This document shows positions 22,966-38,651 of a stretch of 64,000 bases of DNA, piece by piece. A model generated the notes under the pieces. That model was not told the origin of the DNA, ran no database searches, and saw only the letters and a list, made by a program, of their open reading frames with translations. A program made the translations under genes and the position numbers. The DNA is from Escherichia coli. Its GTDB lineage: Bacteria > Pseudomonadota > Gammaproteobacteria > Enterobacterales > Enterobacteriaceae. How positions within the stretch are numbered: the stretch's first letter is position 1; each line of letters opens with the position of its first letter. The DNA lies in the NCBI RefSeq assembly GCF_044324785.1, contig NZ_CP172127.1; one strand, 5' to 3'.

Positions 22966-24096
22966 ATGTCGACTCTGTTTACGATTAATGCCTGCAAGTC
23001 GTTTGGTTGCCGTAATTTAGGGCAGCCAACATCGACAGATTATAGCTGGCCCGACTATCGACTGGGTTATCCGGCACTGCACTGTCGGGCATGTGGCAGT
23101 TACCCGCCGTTGTTTGACGAGCAACAATTTCGTGACTGGTTGACAGTTCACTTATCTACTTTTGCAACAGAGAAAGGCCATTTTTGCCCGGTATGTTATG
23201 GTACAGATACGATTTGTTATGGTCACAATCCACAGGGTTCGCAACGCATTCAATGCCGTAACTGCAAAAAAGTATGGACACCCAAACAATATCAGAAAGA
23301 AATAACGACTCCCGAAATAATCGAAACGGTTGCTTTTCTCGTGCCATTTCAGGGAGTCAGCAGCGGGCAGAAACTGTATGTTTTAATCAGTTTTGATGCT
23401 CTTCGCGGTAATATTCTTCATCTTTCTACTAATTACACGCAGCATCAGGCTGGAGAAAGTCTGCATTATCGATACAGAGGGAATGCAGAACCAGAGTTAC
23501 ACGAGAGTAATATTGTACAACGCGTTGATATGCGGGAAGCACAATTTCTACGCCGCAGTCAGTTTGATGAAATTCAGTATGGCAGCGCAGCGCTCAAACG
23601 CAATGCTAAAGGTGTTATTCTGCGTCCGGTTATCACTGCACACGGGCATTTCAGAGTACTGAATATTTTATTCCCTACAGTAAAAACACATGTAATTTCA
23701 CACGAGTGTTTTTTAAGAGGTGCCATTATTACGGCATGGGCTGATCTGTTTCGCCAACAGCAAGGTGAGATTTGGTTTATTGAAGAGGAAATAGCTGACG
23801 ATACCGATAATATGCCCTGGAGTTTTCAGGGAACAACTTATCACGGCTGGTGGAAAAATCAGTGGCAACTTTGGGGTCAGGGCAAAAATCGTAAAATGGT
23901 ATGTGCATTAACGGGCGGAAAGAGTAGCAAAGCAGAAATGCTCTCTTTAGCAACCAGCAGACATTTTATCGACTGGCTACATAAACAAGCAGTATTTACT
24001 CACAGCACCCCGCTTTCCGCAGGGCGCGTTACGCAAATACTGCTTTCTCTGGCTCAGGATTACAACAACTGCGCCAGGCGGTTAATATCCGACTGA
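22966..24096 (+). CDS. hypothetical protein with N-terminal Cys-rich zinc-ribbon-like motifs
   Basis: 376-aa ORF; N-terminal CxxC pairs (CKSFGC, CRAC, CPVC, CRNC) within ~100 aa; no recognisable catalytic motif in the remainder; low-GC; 3' end overlaps the convergent metL by 37 bp. Confidence 0.55.
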   Translation: MSTLFTINACKSFGCRNLGQPTSTDYSWPDYRLGYPALHCRACGSYPPLFDEQQFRDWLTVHLSTFATEKGHFCPVCYGTDTICYGHNPQGSQRIQCRNCKKVWTPKQYQKEITTPEIIETVAFLVPFQGVSSGQKLYVLISFDALRGNILHLSTNYTQHQAGESLHYRYRGNAEPELHESNIVQRVDMREAQFLRRSQFDEIQYGSAALKRNAKGVILRPVITAHGHFRVLNILFPTVKTHVISHECFLRGAIITAWADLFRQQQGEIWFIEEEIADDTDNMPWSFQGTTYHGWWKNQWQLWGQGKNRKMVCALTGGKSSKAEMLSLATSRHFIDWLHKQAVFTHSTPLSAGRVTQILLSLAQDYNNCARRLISD

Positions 24097-26492
24097 ATCG
24101 CCCCTGCGGTGACGTCGCGCCCCGCGCCAGGCCCACGGATCACCAGAGGGTTATCGCGATACCAGCGGCTTTCGATGGCAAAGACGTTATCGCACGGCAG
24201 CAGTGATGCCAGCGGATGGTCTTCACGCACCGCTTCCACGCCCACACGCGCTTTGCCATTGGCATCGAAACGCGCCACGTAGCGCAGCACCAGCCCCATT
24301 TCGCGGGCCGCTTCCAGCCGTTGCAACATCTGCTCGTTGAGTTCATCGCCGTTTTCAAAGAAATGGTCGATGCTACCGCCTTCGCAATGGGCAGGCACCA
24401 GCGATTCCACGCGCACCTGATCTGGTTCGATGTCGTAACCCGCTTCACGCGCCAGAATCACCAGCTTGCGCATCACGTCTTTGCCGGAAAGGTCATCACG
24501 CGGGTCAGGCTCGGTTAAGCCCTGCTGCCACGCCTGATCCACCAGTTCGGTAAACGGCACGCTACCGTCGAATTGCAGGAACAGCCAGGAGAGCGTGCCG
24601 GAGAAGATCCCGCTGATCGACAAAATAGTATCGCCGCTGTCGATCAGATCGCGCACGGTATGGTTGATCGGCAATCCCGCACCGACGGTGGCGTTGTACA
24701 GCCAGTGACGCCCGGTTTTTTCGAAGGCGTCGTGGATCTGGCGATATTTATTGCTGTCGCTCGCTCCTGCCAGTTTGTTGGCACTGATGACGTGGAAACC
24801 GTGGCTGGCGAAATCAAGATACTGGTCAGCGAGCTGCTGGCTGGCGGTAACGTCCAGCACCACTAAATCATCATACGGATGGGCGCGCATCCACAGGAAC
24901 AGCGACTCTTCATCCTGCTCGACCGCTTCATCGTTGAAGAAGGCTAGCGCGCGGCTGGCATCCAGCCCGCCATAACTCAACAGGCTGCGGCGGCTGTCCA
25001 CCACGCCTGCCAGCACAAATTCAAAGCCGGTACGTGCCGAAAGCGTGCTCTGCTCACGGGCGAACAGTTCCAGCCAGCGGGAACCGATATTGCCCTTGCC
25101 GAACAATACCAGGCCGATGCGTTTTTCTGCGCGGAAGACGGACTGATGCAGCCCCTGAATCAGGCTTTCGGTTGGTCCGGTGCGCAGTACTGCCACCAGG
25201 CTGATGCCGTCATCGGACTGCCAGGTAAATTCGACCGGCTGGCCTTTCAGTTGCTGCCAGAAGCGGTGGCAATGCAGCGGGTTACGGGTGACGCCTGCAC
25301 CGACCATCGCCACCAGCGCCAGCCCCTGACGCAGGCGCAGTTCGCCAGGTAATCCCGCTTCGTCGAGGATTTTCAGCGCACTGTCAGCGACTTCTGAGGT
25401 GTAGCAAAATTGCAGCAACTGGCGATCGTTATGCACGCCAACCGCCAGTGGACGCACCTGGGCACGTTTCAGGATCTGGTCGATCTCTTTATGTGCCAGT
25501 TTGAAATCCTGACTGGCGGGCACCTGAAACTCAATCAAACAGACATCATCGTGGCTGGTGACAATACGCGCACCAGTACCAGAGGCCAGCACGCGTTCAA
25601 TGCGCGTGGAGCCTTGATCCGGCGTGTAGCTACAGCGCAGTTGCAGGTCGATTTCGCTACCGGATACCGGCTGTAAAGTACGGGCGTGAAGAACGGGAGC
25701 CGCCAGACGCGCCAGTTCGCTGGCCTCATCCAGACGCAGCAACGGCAGCAGGCAGGCATCTTTCACTTTACGCGGGTCGGCACTGTATACCCCGGCGACG
25801 TCGCTCCAGATGGTTACACGAGAAACACCCGCCAGCGCACCGATTTGTGTCGCGGAATAGTCGGAACCGTTACGCCCCAGCAGCACCGTTTCACCGGCGT
25901 TGTTACGGCTGATAAACCCGGTCACCACCAGACGTTTGCCCGGATGTTGTACCAGTAGCTGTTGCAGCAACGGGTAAGAAAGTCCTTCATCAACCTGCGG
26001 TTGCGCAGCGCGTTCAGCGCGTAAAAACTCGCGGGCATCAAGCCAGGCCGCTGGCAGCCCTTGTTGATTAAGTACCGCAGACATCAGGCGTGCCGACCAT
26101 ACTTCCCCGTGGCCCACCACTTCCGCATACACCGCATCGTTAATACCACTGTCGAGCAACGCCGCCAGGCGCTCAAGATCGCTGACAAAAGCGCTAATGA
26201 GGCTATCGGCTTCTTCGGCGGGTAACAGGCCGCTAATCAGATCGCACTGATAGCGACGCAGCGTTTGTTGAACCTGATGCGCAGAGAGACGATCGGTCTG
26301 GCTTAGTTTCAACCAGTTAATCAACTGGTTAGTGGTGCTACCGGCGGCGGAAACCACCATCATATCGTCAGGCAGAGAGTACTCCGCCATAATGCCCGCG
26401 ACACGCAAATAACACTTCACATCAGCCAGACTACTGCCACCAAATTTATGCAGTTGACGACCTTTCGCCCCTGCCTGCGCAATCACACTCAT
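24060..26492 (-). CDS. metL: bifunctional aspartokinase II / homoserine dehydrogenase II
   Basis: 810-aa ORF MSVIAQAGAKGRQLHKFGGSSLADVKCYLRVAGIMAEYS; 2 bp downstream of metB (operon). Confidence 0.97.
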   Translation of the reverse strand: MSVIAQAGAKGRQLHKFGGSSLADVKCYLRVAGIMAEYSLPDDMMVVSAAGSTTNQLINWLKLSQTDRLSAHQVQQTLRRYQCDLISGLLPAEEADSLISAFVSDLERLAALLDSGINDAVYAEVVGHGEVWSARLMSAVLNQQGLPAAWLDAREFLRAERAAQPQVDEGLSYPLLQQLLVQHPGKRLVVTGFISRNNAGETVLLGRNGSDYSATQIGALAGVSRVTIWSDVAGVYSADPRKVKDACLLPLLRLDEASELARLAAPVLHARTLQPVSGSEIDLQLRCSYTPDQGSTRIERVLASGTGARIVTSHDDVCLIEFQVPASQDFKLAHKEIDQILKRAQVRPLAVGVHNDRQLLQFCYTSEVADSALKILDEAGLPGELRLRQGLALVAMVGAGVTRNPLHCHRFWQQLKGQPVEFTWQSDDGISLVAVLRTGPTESLIQGLHQSVFRAEKRIGLVLFGKGNIGSRWLELFAREQSTLSARTGFEFVLAGVVDSRRSLLSYGGLDASRALAFFNDEAVEQDEESLFLWMRAHPYDDLVVLDVTASQQLADQYLDFASHGFHVISANKLAGASDSNKYRQIHDAFEKTGRHWLYNATVGAGLPINHTVRDLIDSGDTILSISGIFSGTLSWLFLQFDGSVPFTELVDQAWQQGLTEPDPRDDLSGKDVMRKLVILAREAGYDIEPDQVRVESLVPAHCEGGSIDHFFENGDELNEQMLQRLEAAREMGLVLRYVARFDANGKARVGVEAVREDHPLASLLPCDNVFAIESRWYRDNPLVIRGPGAGRDVTAGAIQSDINRLAQLL

Positions 26493-29021: not shown

Positions 29022-29766
29022 TTGAATTAAGGATATAATACTCGCTTCTAAGGTTGTTTCATGGTCACAGTTAACCTTCATTGTCCCCGTTGCCAGTCCG
29101 TTTAGGTTTACCGTCACGGGCAGAACCCCAAAAGACATGATCGATTCCGCGGCCGTGACTGTCACCGGGTATTTCAGCTCAGTTACTGTTACGAGCCCCG
29201 TAAACCGGGAGTTAAAGACCAAATCGCTGAAATGGCTTTCAACGGTGCCGGGGTTCGCTATACTGCCCGTACGCTGAAAATCGGCATTAATACAGTCATC
29301 CGAACTTTAAAAAACTCTCGCCACGAAGAATAACGTCATCCCCGGTCGCTCATGCTGATGTGGCACTCAACTGCGAACTTAGTCAGCAATGGAGCTTTGT
29401 CGGCAGTAAAGCGCGACAGCACTGGCTCTGGTACGTGTACAACACGAAAACTGGTGGTGTTCTGGCCTACACTTTTGGCCCCCGGACTGATGAAACCTGT
29501 CGTGAATTGCTGGCGCTGCTTACCCTTTTACCATCGGCATGTTGACCACTGACGAATGGGGTAGTTACACCAGAGAGTTACCAAAGGAGAAGCATCTGAC
29601 TGGTAAGATTTTTACTCAGCACATTGAGCGTAACAATCTGACCCTGAGAACCCGAATCAAACGTCTGGCCCGCAGAACCATCTATTTCTCGCGTTCTGTA
29701 GAACTTCATGAAAAAGTCATCGGTGCTTTTATCGAAAATATATGTTCTACTGATTGGAGTCATCAC
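29004..29766 (+). mobile_element. IS1-family insertion sequence, degenerate (insA disrupted, insB frameshifted)
   Basis: Left end ggtgatgcctccaa and right end ttggagtcatcac resemble IS1 terminal inverted repeats; ~763 bp; internal ORF fragments resemble InsB. No obvious flanking target-site duplication. Confidence 0.8.
29360..29763 (+). pseudogene. insB: IS1 transposase insB, frameshifted
   Basis: InsB-like peptides in two different frames (29360-29545 WSFVGSKARQHWLWYVY...; 29539-29853 DEWGSYTRE...IERNNLTLRTRIKRLARRTIYFSRSVELHEKVIG); the upstream insA frame is interrupted by a stop. Confidence 0.75.
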
Positions 29767-29866: not shown

Positions 29867-30145
29867 TTACATCATATTCATAGGCATATGACATTCCCCC
29901 GCCCCCATTATGTCATTGTGGGTTGATGTTGGGCTTTCATAAAAAAATACATCTTTTTTTGAACTAGCATTAATTATATTTACTTTATACATTAAAATAT
30001 TTTCTCCATCTGGAAATATTTTAGCCACACAATATAAAGCAGCTAAATCCGAATTACTTAAAAATATATTGTCATCACTCATAACTCCAGCCATTAAATG
30101 ACTGGAGACTAAAGCAAGGAAATAACAACATTGTATTGCCTTCAT
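29867..30145 (-). CDS. candidate Rhs immunity protein (RhsI) for the orphan CT module
   Basis: Small AT-rich ORF immediately downstream of the orphan rhs-CT stop (30206); internal start at 30145 (MKAIQCCYFLALVSSHLMAG...) preceded by SD aagggag; ORF track's longer version starts at 30181. Function inferred from position only. Confidence 0.55.
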   Translation of the reverse strand: MKAIQCCYFLALVSSHLMAGVMSDDNIFLSNSDLAALYCVAKIFPDGENILMYKVNIINASSKKDVFFYESPTSTHNDIMGAGECHMPMNMM

Positions 30146-30205
30146 TTTAATTACTCCCTTGCCTGATAATTGTAACTCCATTCCCTTTAGCTTTGGGATT
30201 ATATT

Positions 30206-31636
30206 TTAGATAGGTGTTATTTGGTGTTCCCAAGTAACTACTGTATTCTTTTTTTCCATTCCATTCATATAAGAATTCGTTAAATCTTTGCTTGAAAAAT
30301 TTAGACTATCATAAACATCATTTTCTTTTGTTACTTTATTTCCTTTATCGTCAGAGTAAAAACCGTGAGTGTGATAATCGCCTACTCTCTCTGAACCTTC
30401 AGGGCGTTTTATATTTCGCAAGTCTACACTATCATTATCATTTGAACTTATCGGATTCATGGGGGAATATTCACCTTGCTTCTTACATATTAGTCCACCA
30501 TATTCTTTATTCTCGTTAATTGATTCTCCATTACACATTGCCAATGCAAATATTCCAATATCATCTATATTTTTTGATTTAAATTCATATAATCCTAATG
30601 GATCCATGCCATTCACCGGGCTCAGCGGATATGTATACAGGTTCCATCCCCCCTTCAGCCCAATCGGATCCTGAGTGATATACCGCCCCTGCAGCGGGTC
30701 ATAATAGCGGTGGCGGTTGTAATACAGGCCGGACTCCTCATCATACTGCTGCCCCGGCAGGCGGATGAGCTGCTGCAGTTGATGCGGGTTCTCTTCATTC
30801 AGCAGATTGCCCCACTCATCGTATTCTGCGCACCATTCTGTTGCCCCTTCCGTGCTGACAAGCGCCAGCGGCAGGCCGCGATGGTCGCAGTGGTACAGGT
30901 GGATTTTTCGCGCCGGCGTGTACACCGGGTCCATCTGGTTTTGCATCTGCTCCACCGTCAGGCCGCACGATGCCAGCCAGCGGCGGCTTTCCTCACTCAC
31001 CCGGTCAGCCAGGATTTCACTTTCCAGCCGGTCGAGCATCTGCACCAGCACCGGCGGGAACACCACACTGCCACCGTCTTCACCGCCGGACTGCTGAAGC
31101 GCATCCGCCAGGCTGCGGCGCTGCGTTTTCGCCAGCTCACCGGTGGCGGTTTCGACCCTGATGAGTGGCGTGAAGCTCCCCGGCTGATAAACCGTCTGGA
31201 TGCGGGTTCTGTCGTTCTGTATCGTGGTCAGCCGGTCGCCGTCCCAGCCGTACCAGGTCACTTCCGGTTTCCGTGACAGCGACATCCAGCCCGTCAGGTC
31301 CCGTTCACGCCGCCACACCCGTTTTGCCACCCTGCGGCCCAGCGGGTCGTAAAGATAGCGACTTTCGACCAGCGGCTCTGCATATTGTGTCCGCGTGTAG
31401 TGCACCAGCCGGTGCTGACTGTCGTAATGGTACCGGTGAGTCCGCTCATCATCCGTGCGGATAACCCCTTCCGGGATGAGGTCGGTTTTCTCTGTCAGCC
31501 TGCCGTGACGGTCATACCGGTAAAGATAGTGCGCGTCACGGGCGATACGGTTATCCGGCCACATGCTGAGGGTGCTGTCCGGGTGCAGCTCCGGGTCGGG
31601 CAGGCGGTTGCCTGCCGGGTCCGTGGCATACGGGAT
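30206..31636 (-). CDS. orphan Rhs C-terminal module: 3' part of the rhs core plus a distinct C-terminal toxin domain (5'-truncated gene)
   Basis: ORF 30206-31564 (452 aa); Rhs-core homology continues upstream to ~31636 with an in-frame stop beyond. Core ends with ...[28 protein letters not shown] (DPxGL), followed by a 127-aa unique AT-rich C-terminal domain ([10 protein letters not shown]...[12 protein letters not shown]...). Confidence 0.8.
30642..31636. repeat. ~1 kb direct repeat (rhs core 3' region), copy A, near-identical to 34963-35957
   Basis: Base-by-base comparison of the two intervals shows the same sequence with only a handful of substitutions at a constant offset of 4321 bp; the ORF track shows identical antisense peptides at 31273-31464 and 35594-35785. 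Confidence 0.9.
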
Positions 31637-31678
31637 ATCAATGCCCAGGTTACATATAATAAGAGCAATTAACTTAAT

Positions 31679-32005
31679 TTATTTGTTTATAATGCGCTTA
31701 CTTAATACAAACCATTGAATATACCCTCCTGACAGAAAATAAAGCCATGTTATTATCGCCATAATATACTTACTATCAATCCTTACGCCAATAATGTCTG
31801 AAACAGTCCCTATAAATATTAGAGCAATAAAGAATACTATGCCTGTTGGAAAACATATTACCATCATTCCATAAGACATGAGACTAATTAACTCGCTCAC
31901 ATCACGAGTGGAGTCTAATAGTGAAAGTCTATGCATGGAAAAGAATAGTATTAAAAGCGATAAAGCCAGCCATGTAGCTCTGAATAAAAAAATAATACAT
32001 TTCAT
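31679..32005 (-). CDS. small hydrophobic membrane protein (about 3 TM segments); candidate orphan immunity protein
   Basis: 108-aa AT-rich ORF MKCIIFLFRATWLALSLLILFF... between the H-repeat element and the orphan rhs fragment; function inferred from context only. Confidence 0.45.
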   Translation of the reverse strand: MKCIIFLFRATWLALSLLILFFSMHRLSLLDSTRDVSELISLMSYGMMVICFPTGIVFFIALIFIGTVSDIIGVRIDSKYIMAIITWLYFLSGGYIQWFVLSKRIINK

Positions 32006-32039
32006 TACATCACTCCGGTGAATACAAATCTAATAAAGC

Positions 32040-33330
32040 GTCCAATGTTATTTCCGGAGCACTTCATCTTACATGTTTCTAAAGAATCATTAGACCAGTC
32101 AGGGCAAGATTACGAAAGCCCGCTCCCCGCAAGGACTGACGCGAGATAGTTTCTGTCCATGGCTGCTTTTCGCATCTTACGTCTTAACCCTGCCTTGAAT
32201 ACCTTATCATTCGTCAAAATATTAATAGCAATGTGCCGTATCCCTGAAAATAATTCTGCTGCGTTTCCTCTTCTTATTTTGCAGTCGTCTTCATTCATTA
32301 CCACGTCCAGACGCCAGTGCAGCTTATTCTCCACGTGCCAGTGGTTTCGGATTGCTGTGGCGAACTTCTCAGCGGTTAAATCAGCAGAACTGATATAATA
32401 TCTGACCGTCATTTCTGGCTCTTTCTTTTATTCTGCTATTATTGACCGAAAGGAGACTGCCACGCATAATTTTTCAGTCCTTTCTATTCAAATGTAAAAT
32501 CAATAAGTTCATCAGCGACATCGCAAACAATATGAAGACGGATTTCTTCTCTGCCGTGACTCTTTTCACTAATTGCGTAACTGTCATGCTCTGGATTATT
32601 TAATTCTTTCAGCGGAAATGTTTCCTCAAAGGCTTTATTCAACCGCCCCTGGTTTCCTTTTACAGCGAATAAGTAATCACCACCCTGTTTTTGTATCTTC
32701 TCTGCAATATCTTTCTGGCAACCTATCGCATCAGTTGTGATGATTTTCCCTTTAATATACAAAATGTTAAGAAGTTCAGGGATAGCTGTGATCTCATTAG
32801 ATTTCTCATCCGTCCTGATCTGCCCCAGGACCAGAATGTGCATTGTTGAGAACGCACTAATAACATGAATCGCTCCCCTTCGGCGACTCTTATCATAAGA
32901 GTGTCGGAGCATTTTTCCATCAATTGCAATGACGTCTTTATCATCTGAAGAATGGCAGTCACGCATCCAGTTAATAAAGCACTCATGAAATTTTGCAGGG
33001 CTGATACAGGATACAACTCTGGCAATGGTATCGTGGACAGGAATACCATTTTCAAAATCACCGTATTGTTTTAAAAAATCGAGATGTGTTTCCCCAAAAT
33101 CCTCTATATCTTCCCAACCTTCTGCACCCGAAATAACGGCACAAATAGTCAACAGTAGAATATCCGATAATTTATGTTCCACTTTCCAGGCTTGTCTGTA
33201 ATCGGGGATAATAGAAATATGCTCCATCAATTTTTTAAGTTCCATTTTGTTCTCCTTAATTATGTAAGGAGTATTTGATCATGTATAAGCAATAAAAAAC
33301 AGCTTTAGGTAATGAGGAATATCTCAATTT
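32040..33330 (-). mobile_element. H-repeat (H-rpt) element, ISAs1-family, with a frameshifted transposase; boundaries approximate
   Basis: Two consecutive minus-strand ORFs in different frames (32484-33245 [55 protein letters not shown]...; 32110-32412 [44 protein letters not shown]...) together resemble the ~378-aa H-repeat-associated ISAs1-family transposase of E. coli Rhs elements. Confidence 0.8.
32110..33245 (-). pseudogene. ISAs1-family (H-repeat) transposase, split by a frameshift near 32413-32486
   Basis: N-terminal 253-aa and C-terminal 100-aa pieces are in different reading frames separated by ~70 bp. Confidence 0.8.
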
Positions 33331-33348
33331 TCAAACATAAAATGCGAA

Positions 33349-33935
33349 TTATTTAGTACAAAAAAGCAGCGTTACGTGATCTTTCCCTGGCATGTCATTA
33401 GATGAACCAGTTATACAACCCTCGGAACAGAATCGAGGTCCTAAAGACGGACCAAAAGCGTTTAAACAACTATGTATTGAAAATCCATTACGATTATAAG
33501 TTCCTGTATTAACTGACGGTACTAATCGTATGCCGTCAGGTTTTCTATTGCTTGCTCCCGGGTCATTAACATTCCAACTCCATAGGCCTTGAGGTATTGG
33601 CCCTCTATTTATAAATGTGTACAACGGGGATTATTTTTACATTGCATATTATTACCAGAAGCGACTGGAATACTAAGCACATCATAAAAATTATCATCAC
33701 CTGGTATATCTGAAACACACGAAAGCATACCTAAAGTTATGCTGTATAAACAGGTGGCTAATCCCAAGGGGATCGATTCCAGAAATCGGGTTCAACGGAT
33801 ACTGATAAAAATTCCACCTACCTTCCAGCCCAATCGGAGCCTGAGTGTTATACCGCCCCTGCTGCGGTTAATGTTACCGATAATAGTTATAGTACAGCCC
33901 TGATTCATCATCATACTACTGCTGCGGCAGTCTGA
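33349..33935 (-). pseudogene. degenerate orphan rhs remnant (diverged core 3' end plus disrupted C-terminal region)
   Basis: 33800-33935 is a diverged, indel-containing copy of the rhs core 3' end (compare 34963-35100); downstream frames are interrupted; the 91-aa ORF 33349-33624 is in a different frame. Confidence 0.6.
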
Positions 33936-33948
33936 TGAATTATTGCTT

Positions 33949-34410
33949 TTACGGATTCTCCTTATTCTTCCTTCTATCCATTCGCTTTAGCTTTTTGAGA
34001 TCTTGAAGTTTGCTCTTTGCATCAATATTACCGTTATTTACAGCGAATTCCATCCAATAAATAGCTTTATTCAAATTATAATGTTCTGATAATATTGGAT
34101 TTGTATCCGATAAAAAAACCCCATAATTAAACTGCGCTGTAACATTCCCCTGAGATGCTGATCTTTCTAAGTATCGCAATTGTTTGTAAATGTTATTTTT
34201 AGTAAAGCAGTAATATTGATATAGTCGAAATGATGCCTCTGAATCACCATGTTGTGATTTATACTTCAGTTTCATCAACTTTTCTTCACTTAAATCATAG
34301 GTCATTGCTGTAGACCCCATCATACTTTCGTTTTGTTTTATTTTCACATCAGCACCATGCAATTGAAAAATAAAAGAAAAATAAAAAAATAGTAACAAGC
34401 ATGCTTTCAT
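33949..34410 (-). CDS. Sel1-like repeat protein with N-terminal signal peptide; candidate cognate Rhs immunity protein (RhsI)
   Basis: 153-aa AT-rich ORF starting 12 bp downstream of the main rhs stop; signal-like N-terminus MKACLLLFFYFSFIFQLHGA; Sel1/TPR-like motifs (...YQYYCFTKNNIYKQLRYLERSASQGNVTAQFNYGVFL...). Confidence 0.65.
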   Translation of the reverse strand: MKACLLLFFYFSFIFQLHGADVKIKQNESMMGSTAMTYDLSEEKLMKLKYKSQHGDSEASFRLYQYYCFTKNNIYKQLRYLERSASQGNVTAQFNYGVFLSDTNPILSEHYNLNKAIYWMEFAVNNGNIDAKSKLQDLKKLKRMDRRKNKENP

Positions 34411-34421
34411 ACATCTACAAC

Positions 34422-37400
34422 CTATCTTATATCACTGGGTTTTTCTGGCGTACCTTGCATATTAGAAATGGGGTGCCCAGATGGCCCATATGTTATCCAA
34501 TTACCAAGGTCTTTTGTTGTTATAGCCATTAGATCCTTATTTGAATTAAGGTTCGTTGGTGCTGTTAGCACTGTATCCATTTTTAACTTACCATTAGTTC
34601 CTCGCCCCCACCACGTCCATAGCGTGTCAGGTCCTATTACATTTGTATGTAACTCTTTAGCTAATTGGCTAGCAAATGAATTTTGTCCTTTACCTGTATT
34701 ACAAGAAAATAACCAAACTGTCATCCCATCTTTATAATTCCCATCAAATTTAATTAGATATGCTAGATCTTTAGCTGTCATGATACTGCGCGTTGCGGAT
34801 TCAATAGATGTGGGGGTACCATGCCCCCCGATTGTGAAAACGCCTGGGATATTAATCTCATCAGCTACAGAATGGATAAGATCACTTTCGGGGTATAAAT
34901 TTATATCAACCAAACCTTGCGGATCTACATTTATGACCGGATTCAACGGATACTGATAAAAATTCCATCCCCCCTTCAGCCCAATCGGATCCTGAGTGAT
35001 ATACCGCCCCTGCAGCGGGTCATAATAGCGGTGGCGGTTGTAATACAGGCCGGACTCCTCATCATACTGCTGACCCGGCAGGCGGATGAGCTGCTGCAGC
35101 TGGTGCGGGTTCTCTTCATTCAGCAGGTTGCCCCACTCATCGTATTCTGCGCACCATTCTGTTGCCCCTTCCGTGCTGACAAGCGCCAGCGGCAGGCCGC
35201 GATGGTCGCAGTGGTACAGGTGGATTTTTCGCGCCGGCGTGTACACCGGGTCCATCTGGTTTTGCATCTGCTCCACCGTCAGGCCGCACGATGCCAGCCA
35301 GCGGCGGCTTTCCTCACTCACCCGGTCAGTAAGGATTTCACTTTCCAGCCGGTCGAGCATCTGCACCAGCACCGGCGGGAACACCACACTGCCACCGTCT
35401 TCACCGCCGGACTGCTGAAGCGCATCCGCCAGGCTGCGGCGCTGCGTTTTCGCCAGCTCACCGGTGGCGGTTTCGACCCTGATGAGTGGCGTGAAGCTCC
35501 CCGGCTGATAAACCGTCTGGATGCGGGTTCTGTCGTTCTGTATCGTGGTCAGCCGGTCGCCGTCCCAGCCGTACCAGGTCACTTCCGGTTTCCGTGACAG
35601 CGACATCCAGCCCGTCAGGTCCCGTTCACGCCGCCACACCCGTTTTGCCACCCTGCGGCCCAGCGGGTCGTAAAGATAGCGACTTTCGACCAGCGGCTCT
35701 GCATATTGTGTCCGCGTGTAGTGCACCAGCCGGTGCTGACTGTCGTAATGGTACCGGTGAGTCCGCTCATCATCCGTGCGGATAACCCCTTCCGGGATGA
35801 GGTCGGTTTTCTCTGTCAGCCTGCCGTGACGGTCATACCAGTAAAGATAGTGCGCGTCACGGGCGATACGGTTATCCGGCCATGCGCTGAGGGTGCTGTC
35901 CGGGTGCAGCTCCGGGTCGGGCAGGCGGTTGCCCGCCGGGTCCGTGGCATACGGGATGCGGATATCAAGGTTCGCTGCCGTGGTGTGGACGCCGGTCAGC
36001 CTGCCGGTGTCGCTGTAGCTGTAACTCCGGGTCTGGCGCGGGCTGCTGATGCGGATGAGTTCGCCGTTGTCGTTCCAGGTGTAATCGCGGTCATACTGCA
36101 GGCTGTTCAGGTGCTGGCTCTGTAACTGCCCGGCAGGGGTGTAAGCGGTGGTGAGTTCATAACGGCCGAAGCTGCGCAGCGTTTCCCGGTGCAGGCGGTC
36201 GCGGGTGTACTCCACCAGCGGTGTGTCGCCGAGTTTCATGCCTGCCAGCCAGCCGCTGCCGTAAGTCAGCCATTCCACGGCGGGCAGGCTGTCCGGTATA
36301 CAGCGGTTCGCCAGCCCCTGCGCGTTGTACGCATGTCTGGTCTCATGCTGCCAGACCAGTGCTTCCGTCTGCGGGTGATGCACCGTCTGGCGCTCACCGG
36401 TCAGGCGGCCTTTCTCATCATACCCGTAATGCACCGTCACCCGGTGGCCTTCGCTGAGATGGCTGATGCCTGTCAGCCAGCCGCGTTCGTCATACTGCCA
36501 CTGCTCTGCAGGTTCACCCTTCACGGTACGCTGCGTGATGCGGTCTGCTTCGTCATAGTGCCAGTGGGTGACCAGCCCCTCATCCTCGCTGCGGATAAGT
36601 TTGCCGGTCAGGTCGTGGTGATAACGCTGTGTACGGCCGTCAAAGCCGGTTTCCTGTATCAGACGGTCAAGTACATCGTAACGGAAGGTGGTGTGGCTGC
36701 CGTTTTCACTGGTCAGGCGGATGACCCGTCCGGCAGCATCGTATTCCATACTGCGCGTCAGACCACCCTGCGTGGTACGGATGGCCTTTCCCCACGTATC
36801 GTACTGTGTCCCGTTTCTGCTGCCGTCCGGGGCAATGACGGCGGTCAGGTCACCGGCGGCGTTGTATTCATACCGCGTTTCATGGCCCTGCATGTCTTTC
36901 ACCGCAATTAACTGTCCACGGCTGTCGTATGCGCGGTACTGGCTCAGGCCTTCCTCGCGGTGCACCGCCGTCACCTGACCAAAACGGTCATGGTCATAAC
37001 GGGTTACATAACCGGAACAGTCAGTGACGGTCAGCAACTGACCGTAACGGCTCCATGTCATGGTTTTCCGGCTGCCGGTGGCATCTTCCGTTGCGCAGGG
37101 TAAGTCACTGTGTGGATTATCATAACGGTAGCGGGTGATATCGCCGTTGTGTGCGGTTTCCTGAATCAGACGGCCGGATTCATCATATTCCCGGCGCAAC
37201 TCCAGCCCGTCAGTCCCGGTGGCTGACGTTAACTGGTTGTGGTGGTTATAGTAAAACGCCGATGCCCTGCCATCCGGTGTGGTGATGCGCGTGATGAGTC
37301 CCGTCACCACATCCGGGCTGTACTCAGTCGTCCGGCCTGCGGCATCCGTCTGTGCCTTAAGCCTGCCCACCGCGTCAAACTGACTCTGCGTGACGCTGCC

Positions 37401-38651
37401 GTCCGCGTGTTCCTTTTTCACCACCCGCTTCAGCCCGCCTTCGCCCTGCGTGTGCAGGACTTCACGGCGGTCCAGGCTGTCGGTGATGGTGATGTGGTCT
37501 TTCTCATACTGATACGTGTAGCTTAAGCCTGCCGGGTTTAGCTGTTCTGTCACCCGCCCGTCACTGTCGTAACGGTAACGGATTTCCGGCCGGCCCGTGT
37601 GACGGTGCGCCACCATCCGGCCCCGGTATTTATCATCGTAAGTAAAGCTGCGCACCTGTGTGCCGCTGCGGTCATACACCGCCGCCAGTTCGCCGCGTGG
37701 CGTCCAGCCATAGCGTACCAGCGGCGCGGCTGGCAGGTTGTCCGGATATTCCGGGTCGTGCGTCAGCCACACGGCAGACAGACGGATGCCGTTGTCCCGG
37801 CCATATTCGGTGTAACCCGGCAGGGTATCAGGAAAAGCGGACGGTTCCGCCCCGCCGGAAATGGCCTGCTGCCGGGCCTCTTCTGCCCGCAACGCCTGCG
37901 TGGTCAGTACCAGCCGGAAGTGACGCCCGGCACCATCCGTCACGCCGGTGATTTCGCCGCTGAATTCGCCGCCAGCCTCACGGTGGAACGTCTGTGTGCG
38001 CCCGAAGCGGTCCACCAGCCCGGTCAGTACCCGGTACGGCGGCAGTGGCGCAGGCAGCACCTCATCCGCCTCCGGCACCCGCTCACACCAGCCGAGTACC
38101 CACCACGGCCCCTGCGGACTGTTCGTCGCCAGATAACGATGCGGACTCAGGCGAAGCTCTTCCGGCAGCGCCTGCCAGAGTGCGGCCAGCCGGTGACCTT
38201 CATCCAGTTTCGCCACGCCGCCGCGCACCAGCCAGAGTGACTCGCTGCGGCTGTAACCGTCCTCACCGGGAAACAGGTGCTCAAAATACAGGCTTCTGCC
38301 GCCGTTATCACTGAGTATCAGTGTGTTATCGCGCAGCTGTAAGCGGATATCCGCAGGCATTTTCCAGCCGGGGCCGAGGCTCCCCACCGGCGCGGGCGTT
38401 TTTGTCCGGTAACTGCTGTAGGTGCGGGAGAGGATGAACGGCAGCGGGCCGGGCAGGGCAAGGTCGGTTTCTCCGGGAAGGACCTTCGCACCGAGCAGCG
38501 GATTGACCGGATGGCCGGACGTCACCCCGCCGGGGCACACCGAACAGGCCACGCCGGTGGGGGCACCAATACGTACCCCGGCTGAACCCTGAACAATGCT
38601 ACCGCCATACTGCGTCATGTCGCCCTGACGCGCCGCCGGTTTTCCGCTCAT
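34422..38651 (-). CDS. rhs: full-length Rhs protein (PAAR-like N-terminal domain, YD-repeat core, DPxGL, unique C-terminal toxin domain)
   Basis: 1409-aa ORF; N-terminus [42 protein letters not shown] typical of E. coli Rhs; many YD/RYxYD repeats; core ends ...[11 protein letters not shown]; 162-aa C-terminal domain ([10 protein letters not shown]...FTIGGHGTP...[10 protein letters not shown]...) not recognised by me. Confidence 0.95.
34963..35957. repeat. ~1 kb direct repeat (rhs core 3' region), copy B, near-identical to 30642-31636
   Basis: See copy A; lies within the main rhs gene. Confidence 0.9.

Follow-up and report, generated by a model that had tools for sequence, protein, structure and literature searches.

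C-terminal displacement of rhs genes in the Enterobacteriaceae was described by Jackson et al. 2009 (PMC2935791), who also found that core fragments carrying dissociated tips in Escherichia coli are identical to the main core and proposed that excision and integration proceed via circular intermediates. Orphan rhs-CT/rhsI modules were defined by Poole et al. 2011 (PMC3150448), who reported that tips found as orphans in one strain serve as main tips in others. Recombination between a main and an orphan gene was demonstrated experimentally by Koskiniemi et al. 2014 (PMC3967940) for Salmonella Typhimurium LT2, across a 522-bp region of 95% identity. Here we describe the RhsF element of an E. coli strain (RefSeq assembly GCF_044324785.1), which lies between rpmE and yiiX within a stretch of 64,000 nucleotides of contig NZ_CP172127.1, hereafter called the window. 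The yiiX-priA site corresponds to rhs locus 11 of Jackson et al. The element contains a full-length main rhs gene and an orphan that starts with a nearly identical 995-bp fragment of its core. The locus is a clean natural example of Rhs tip switching, with both states being common at one site. The best explanation, to which we assign a probability of about 0.85, is that tip/immunity modules stack by C-terminal displacement and that the core copies recombine homologously. Mechanistically this is essentially the published model for Rhs loci; the finding is already known in kind and adds no new principle.

The element resembles RhsF of the RhsA-B-C-F subfamily (Hill laboratory) in its chromosomal site, a GC-rich core that passes the RHS_core model, AT-rich tips, small downstream open reading frames (ORFs) and the presence of an H-repeat/ISAs1 sequence. 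As in the E. coli cases of Jackson et al., its downstream core fragments are nearly identical to the main core. It differs by its composite architecture on a haplotype like that of strain N3, which carries the simple form of the locus, and by frameshifts in the orphan tip and in dsORF-f3. The 'RhsF/RhsFI' of enterohaemorrhagic E. coli (EHEC; PMC7618764) was considered as a counterpart and rejected, as it is encoded at a different locus (ECs0604, S-loop 44). The arrangement in Salmonella LT2 is alike in that a full-length rhs gene is followed by an immunity gene and then by an orphan tip to which a directly oriented core fragment is attached. Through recombination in the common region the main core becomes joined to the orphan tip, which allows deployment of the orphan toxin (PMC3967940). 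The repeat in the window is longer and more similar (995 bp, 98.9% identity) than that of LT2. In contrast to LT2, 3.3 kb of older remnants and an insertion sequence (IS) separate the copies, type VI secretion system (T6SS) genes are not adjacent, and the orphan pair is damaged. Switching in LT2 was shown experimentally, whereas the locus in the window is known from its sequence alone.

The core repeat of the RhsF element

The rhs genes of the locus are located on the minus strand. Along the genes, with coordinates decreasing, the order is rpmE, main rhs, a Sel1/TPR-like ORF, a yibS/yibW remnant, ISEc1, the tail of an RhsC tip with ybfB, the orphan, dsORF-f3, a defective IS1 and yiiX-metJ-metB-metL. 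In the E. coli genome that matches best, RefSeq annotates a corresponding set of genes with the same placement between rpmE and yiiX. The main gene, the orphan and their companions are the following:

34422-38651, minus strand: main full-length rhs gene of the RhsF element, 1409 aa with an AT-rich tip; identified as an ORF with an orthologue annotated in RefSeq as 'RHS element core protein'
34963-35957, minus strand: repeat copy A, the final 995 bp of the core in the main gene; 62% G+C
34422-34962, minus strand: main tip of the K-12 yibJ orphan type, a putative toxin, assigned by identity to yibJ; 39% G+C
33949-34410, minus strand: putative immunity gene of the main tip, a Sel1/TPR-like YibG orthologue of 153 aa; 'sel1 repeat family protein'/'yibG' in RefSeq
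30642-31636, minus strand: repeat copy B, the 995-bp core fragment heading the orphan, recognized by its match to the RHS_core profile
30206-30641, minus strand: orphan tip with DUF4329, a putative toxin; Pfam DUF4329 with E=1.4e-11; 33% G+C
29867-30181, minus strand: dsORF-f3, putative immunity gene of the orphan tip; 'RHS element protein dsORF-f3' in RefSeq

The first-pass annotation had reported that two intervals of the locus are near-identical at a constant offset of 4321 bp, and this was confirmed by pairwise alignment. At that fixed offset, positions 30642-31636 and 34963-35957 aligned in direct orientation over 995 bp without a gap and with 11 mismatches (98.9% identity), so the two intervals are not more diverged than they had appeared. 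The mismatches are located at positions 30752, 30779, 30782, 30806, 31009, 31010, 31519, 31562-31564 and 31613 (orphan coordinates), leaving blocks of 508 bp (31011-31518) and 202 bp (30807-31008) as the longest stretches free of mismatches. Beyond the repeat, identity at the same offset drops to the random level of about 25%. This loss is abrupt at the high-coordinate edge (31636/35957), while the low-coordinate edge fades over about 40 bp with partial similarity reaching to about 30600/34921. A third copy, consisting of the final 169 bp of the core (33770-33938), is short and diverged (75% identity), and no copies beyond these three were found in the window.

With respect to the protein, the repeat comprises the last 331 codons of the Rhs core, and the main and orphan copies differ at three residues. 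Both copies harbor the PxxxxDPxGL motif, and their divergence begins five codons past the DPIGL of this motif, where the tips start. The core has a G+C content of 62%, as opposed to 31-41% in the tips and small ORFs (39% in the main tip, 33% in the orphan tip and 31% in the downstream ORFs). The main gene scored 2626 bits against the NCBIfam RHS_core equivalog (cutoff 2000) over residues 1-1247 and contains DUF6531 and nine significant RHS repeats according to Pfam, together with a weak match to PAAR_motif (E=0.23 over 18 residues). The orphan matches only positions 913-1261 of the RHS_core profile. It lacks the N-terminal part and initiation signals of its own, and its core fragment has the same orientation as the main gene. 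No Pfam domain was found in the main tip, and a sequence search for PDB relatives of either tip returned none at E<=1. Based on its position, the YibG orthologue is the putative immunity protein for the main tip; its Pfam matches are weak (TPR_27 with E=5e-4, Sel1 with E=0.5). YbfB and dsORF-f3 likewise lie where an immunity gene would be expected.

The three adjacent substitutions at 31562-31564 were also considered as the source of a new ATG start codon for the orphan. This was rejected, as the ATG at 31564 (the Met of SMWPDN) is an ordinary core codon that also occurs in K-12 rhsC, in ybfO and in the O26 locus, and represents the common core allele in most copies. The rarer GCA is found at this site in the main copy of the window and in N3. 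No Shine-Dalgarno sequence is evident upstream of the ATG at 31564.

Short reads can lead to a wrong assembly of 1-kb repeats, which is the general ground for suspecting a mis-joined or falsely expanded repeat; nothing specific points to it here. The two-copy (composite) architecture was recovered from 148 independent genomes in a set of 5,426 complete E. coli genomes, with the same order and junctions and a spacing of 4321-4335 bp between the copies. Moreover, 11 differences between the copies and their distinct flanks are incompatible with a collapsed or duplicated pile of reads. An assembly artefact is thus a negligible explanation for the repeat, and a collapsed-repeat error, the possibility raised earlier, does not apply.

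Two architectures at one site and exchange between the copies

The first-pass annotation had also predicted that recombination between the copies would delete about 4.3 kb and fuse the main core to the orphan tip. As far as the architecture is concerned, this prediction held. A crossover anywhere in the repeat would yield an in-frame chimera of 1374 aa. A query representing the deletion product (dsORF-f3, orphan tip, repeat and 800 bp of main core) was found as one contiguous piece in about 1,864 of the 5,426 genomes, which carry the orphan DUF4329 tip on a full-length rhs gene at the same locus. In the simple-form examples that were inspected, a single full-length rhs gene is followed by dsORF-f3 at the rpmE-yiiX site, beside the same defective IS1. 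When the fused query was taken from the composite strain KKa019, simple alleles were up to 99.4% identical to it. As the simple form occurs in about 1,864 genomes and the composite form in 148, both architectures circulate at this one locus.

Full-length RhsF genes vary in length between strains (4173 versus 4185 nt), as seen when the simple loci L014-L018 are compared with L003. The identity of simple RhsF cores to the window ranges from 95.3% to 99.1% along the gene, which suggests mosaic exchange with other rhs loci also upstream of the repeat.

For allele sharing, the 995-bp segment was compared between 10 composite loci and several simple loci. Within a genome, the main and orphan copies differ at 3-19 positions. 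The copies in the window differ from each other at 11 positions, but from their positional counterparts in other composites at 18-21 (main) and 13-23 (orphan) positions. Among the 10 composite genomes, 17 polymorphisms are common to the main and orphan sets, compared to about 0.26 expected from independent recurrent mutation, and only one difference between main and orphan copies is fixed (at 30782, near the tips). The orphan of CUVET16 lacks an RhsC-like patch at 30844-30804 and shows 3 differences from its own main copy versus 6-13 from other orphans (6-10 within the common composite lineage, 13 to the window). The orphan of MS69-1 harbors the 'C.GCA' main-type 5' allele, which was otherwise seen in main copies. 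Both cases look like conversion tracts. The simple alleles of TUM1886 and Survcare321 are mosaics of a main-type 5' part and an orphan-type 3' part with differing switch points. Alleles are thus shared between the copies in a patchwork. The earlier suggestion of ongoing gene conversion is therefore supported by the 17 common polymorphisms and the single fixed difference, and the main and orphan copies appear to be subject to ongoing conversion or recombination.

A different role for the core fragment could be that it is kept mainly for expression signals, namely an internal promoter or start just upstream of the PxxxxDPxGL-coding sequence. The orphan would then be a self-expressed, toxin-antitoxin-like module, and the value of the fragment for recombination would be incidental. 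An internal promoter has been reported upstream of this sequence in main and orphan copies and also upstream of E. coli rhs tips (Starsta 2020, PMC7043789), as well as in EHEC rhs genes (PMC7618764). The oldest orphan retains only the last 169 bp of the core (33770-33938), which is about the length needed for the P2 promoter and the PxxxxDPxGL motif. However, expression signals account for the retention of about 150-200 bp and not of 995 bp, and they leave the patchy sharing of alleles across the whole kilobase unexplained. A scan for sigma-70 consensus sites detected none on the gene strand within the repeat and 16 sites overall versus 13.1 expected; together with a terminator scan it showed no enrichment, which is weak evidence either way. 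As the main explanation for the fragment, retention for expression is unlikely. It is, however, compatible with tip stacking and core recombination rather than exclusive of them.

For the direction of the natural events, a deletion model and an insertion model predict the identical allele pattern, a main-type 5' part and an orphan-type 3' part, when diagnostic alleles and the identity of flanking genes are compared. The segment of the window from IS1 via dsORF-f3 to the orphan tip is 99.9% identical to that of N3, which has the simple form, and both copies in the window carry an N3-like haplotype in the centre of the repeat. These observations fit either N3 being a deletion derivative of a window-like composite or a simple, N3-like locus having acquired the module, with gap repair or subsequent conversion.

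Origin of the modules between the copies

The DNA between the two core copies and at the border of the element contains the following features:

33390-33938, minus strand: remnant of a first, older orphan; 169 bp from the core end (33770-33938) precede a tip of the yibS/yibW type, which stops short at the end of ISEc1
32100-33389, minus strand: ISEc1 (ISAs1 family, 'H-repeat'), 1290 bp, joining the yibG module to the ybfB module; ends taken from population matches
31637-32099, minus strand: RhsC-type module remnant with the last ~100 bp of the RhsC tip, ybfB and a 42-bp spacer; 97.5% identity to K-12 rhsC tail-ybfB-ybfO
31679-32005, minus strand: ybfB, 108 aa, putative immunity gene; 'protein YbfB' in the Prokaryotic Genome Annotation Pipeline (PGAP)
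29061-29753, plus strand: defective IS1 (IS1H-like, frameshifted), which bounds the element on the yiiX side; annotated by PGAP on orthologous loci, coordinates transferred from one of these (L001)

The near-identity of the copies could be a sign of youth if a segment of about 4.3 kb including the core end had recently been duplicated in tandem. The identity of 98.9%, the 508-bp perfect stretch and the N3-like haplotype shared locally by both copies in the repeat centre would agree with such an event. Nevertheless, it is very improbable. The two copies are followed by unrelated tips, so a duplicated unit does not exist. Furthermore, the rhsC locus of K-12 has a ybfB/ybfO junction identical to the 5' junction of the orphan (ybfB, 42-bp spacer and restart of the core at ATCCCGTATGCC). 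That locus (rhsC-ybfB-ybfO-ybfC) has both this junction and the 995-bp orphan core fragment of ybfO in common with the window, but the ybfO-type fragment carries the DUF4329 tip in the window and the ybfO tip in K-12.

The main tip, the Sel1 gene and the next remnant share 98.05% identity over 2002 bp (window 35391 to 33390) with yibJ-yibG-yibS-yibW, which are silent orphans at the rhsA locus of K-12. The yibJ tip is thus an orphan in K-12 (rhsA-yibA-yibJ-yibG-yibS-yibW), whereas it is the main tip in the window, where it occupies another chromosomal locus. The DNA that separates the copies (3.3 kb) is consequently a mosaic of modules from the K-12 rhsA and rhsC loci that are joined by ISEc1. 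A search with the 3326-bp unique segment located it as a whole in 145 genomes. The three sub-modules are also found apart from each other, in thousands of genomes, with breaks precisely at the ends of ISEc1. The composite architecture is common to 148 genomes, and the internal modules sampled from this composite lineage differ by 0.6-2% from those of the window. Over the whole locus, the allele of the window found no match above 98.2% among the 5,426 complete genomes. The recent duplication proposed in the first-pass annotation was therefore not borne out. Given the old K-12 junctions and the mosaic nature of the intervening DNA, the repeat is not the footprint of a fresh duplication; it is the common core part of two tip modules that differ in age and provenance.

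ISEc1 was delimited by the query positions of population hits (464-1753), and its terminal inverted repeats are imperfect. The transposase gene is frameshifted into ORFs at 32484-33245 (253 aa) and 32110-32412 (100 aa), which match NCBIfam transpos_ISAs1 with E=2.9e-85 and 1e-27, respectively. PGAP flags this frameshift in all composite genomes that were inspected; ISEc1 is thus probably not mobile and is passed on together with the array. An 8-bp sequence, TCATTAGA, is positioned 5 bp outside each end of ISEc1 (flanks 32085-32099 and 33390-33402). Its interpretation as a target-site duplication, with ISEc1 inserted into one contiguous tip, is unsupported because of this 5-bp distance and because the flanks belong to different tips (yibW-type and RhsC-type). 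The two flanks have a short ACTGGT...TCTAATGA motif in common, which may be a preferred insertion motif or the join of a recombination between two IS copies. The yibS/yibW remnant next to ISEc1 is labeled by PGAP as 'RHS repeat-associated core domain-containing protein, internal stop, partial'. The defective IS1 at the other border is present in simple and composite forms alike.

These observations can be combined in the following model of stacking by displacement and homologous recombination between core copies. A core fragment with a new tip would recombine with the resident core ('C-terminal displacement'), whereby the old tip and part of the core would be pushed downstream into a silent position. 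As the resulting core copies form a long and highly similar direct repeat, we infer that they recombine with each other by RecA-type homologous recombination. Non-reciprocal exchange would keep the core copies alike. Reciprocal exchange would delete the 4,321-bp unit, possibly as a circle, and fuse the main core to the orphan tip, and the reverse reaction or an unequal sister exchange would insert or duplicate this unit.

More tentatively, the combination of ybfB and the 995-bp core fragment could represent a conserved, portable cassette boundary at both K-12 rhsC and RhsF. The orphan core fragment would then serve as the downstream homology arm, and homologous recombination alone, through two crossovers or through ends-in gap repair, might carry entire multi-tip arrays from one rhs locus or strain to another. 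This idea is possible, although we consider it doubtful. If true, it would explain the presence of the recipient (N3-like) haplotype in the centre of both copies in the window. As a corollary, N3 would be a natural deletion product of a window-like composite, whose tip decayed while silent and was returned to the expressed position.

Frameshifted orphans and the meaning of tip switching

The first-pass annotation had expected the deletion to change the toxin and immunity specificity, and this part of the prediction is doubtful for the present strain because both the orphan tip and its immunity gene are frameshifted. In comparison to O26, KKa019 and six other loci, the DUF4329 tip lacks 1 nt in a G-run near 30258, and its last 35 residues are replaced as a result. 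The DUF4329 match accordingly covers model positions 6-93 in the window and 6-108 in the intact version of O26. In dsORF-f3, 1 nt is likewise missing from a G-run near 29907, so that the last ~25 residues are altered. Both frameshifts are also present in N3, where they affect the full-length gene, and PGAP classifies this gene and dsORF-f3 of N3 as frameshifted pseudogenes. The orphan of MS69-1 has yet another frameshift. With tip and immunity gene both disrupted, the outcome of a switch in this strain would probably be a defective toxin and not one of new specificity. In a plain deletion, the putative, Sel1-type immunity gene of the main tip would be lost as well. For Salmonella, the locus was proposed to be duplicated before the switch, and both alleles were still present in inhibitor clones (PMC3967940). 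In O26 the toxin tip is intact, but dsORF-f3 carries a different frameshift (A-run near 29948) and is marked as frameshifted by PGAP; in a true immunity gene this would be unexpected if the toxin were active.

Several points weigh against reading the locus as a functional switch driven by recombination between its two core copies. The shared polymorphisms could partly reflect the independent assembly of composites in different backgrounds, and part of the sharing could come from exchange with other rhs cores, which offer a median of 9 matching places per genome. The evidence for recombination is a comparison between strains, and this strain is represented by a single assembled sequence. Because dsORF-f3 and the orphan tip are frameshifted, switching may bring no adaptive benefit in this strain. 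Finally, delivery and toxicity are assumed: the neighbours of the RhsF locus are housekeeping genes, vgrG or other T6SS genes are absent from the region adjacent to it, and the PAAR match of the main protein is weak.

Further along the flank beyond yiiX, a 376-aa ORF (22966-24096, plus strand) overlaps the 3' end of metL (24060-26492, minus strand) by 37 bp. In related genomes this ORF carries no annotation beyond 'hypothetical/cytoplasmic protein', and it is absent from the O26 locus, where metF adjoins metL.

The value of the present example is modest. The recombinant architecture is the majority allele at this site in the 5,426 genomes, and the orphan junction is an old boundary that is common to different rhs loci. 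The switching of Rhs tips is a known route by which enteric bacteria change the toxin that is deployed against their neighbours. Silent orphans decay by frameshift, and a switch can thus resurrect a broken toxin.

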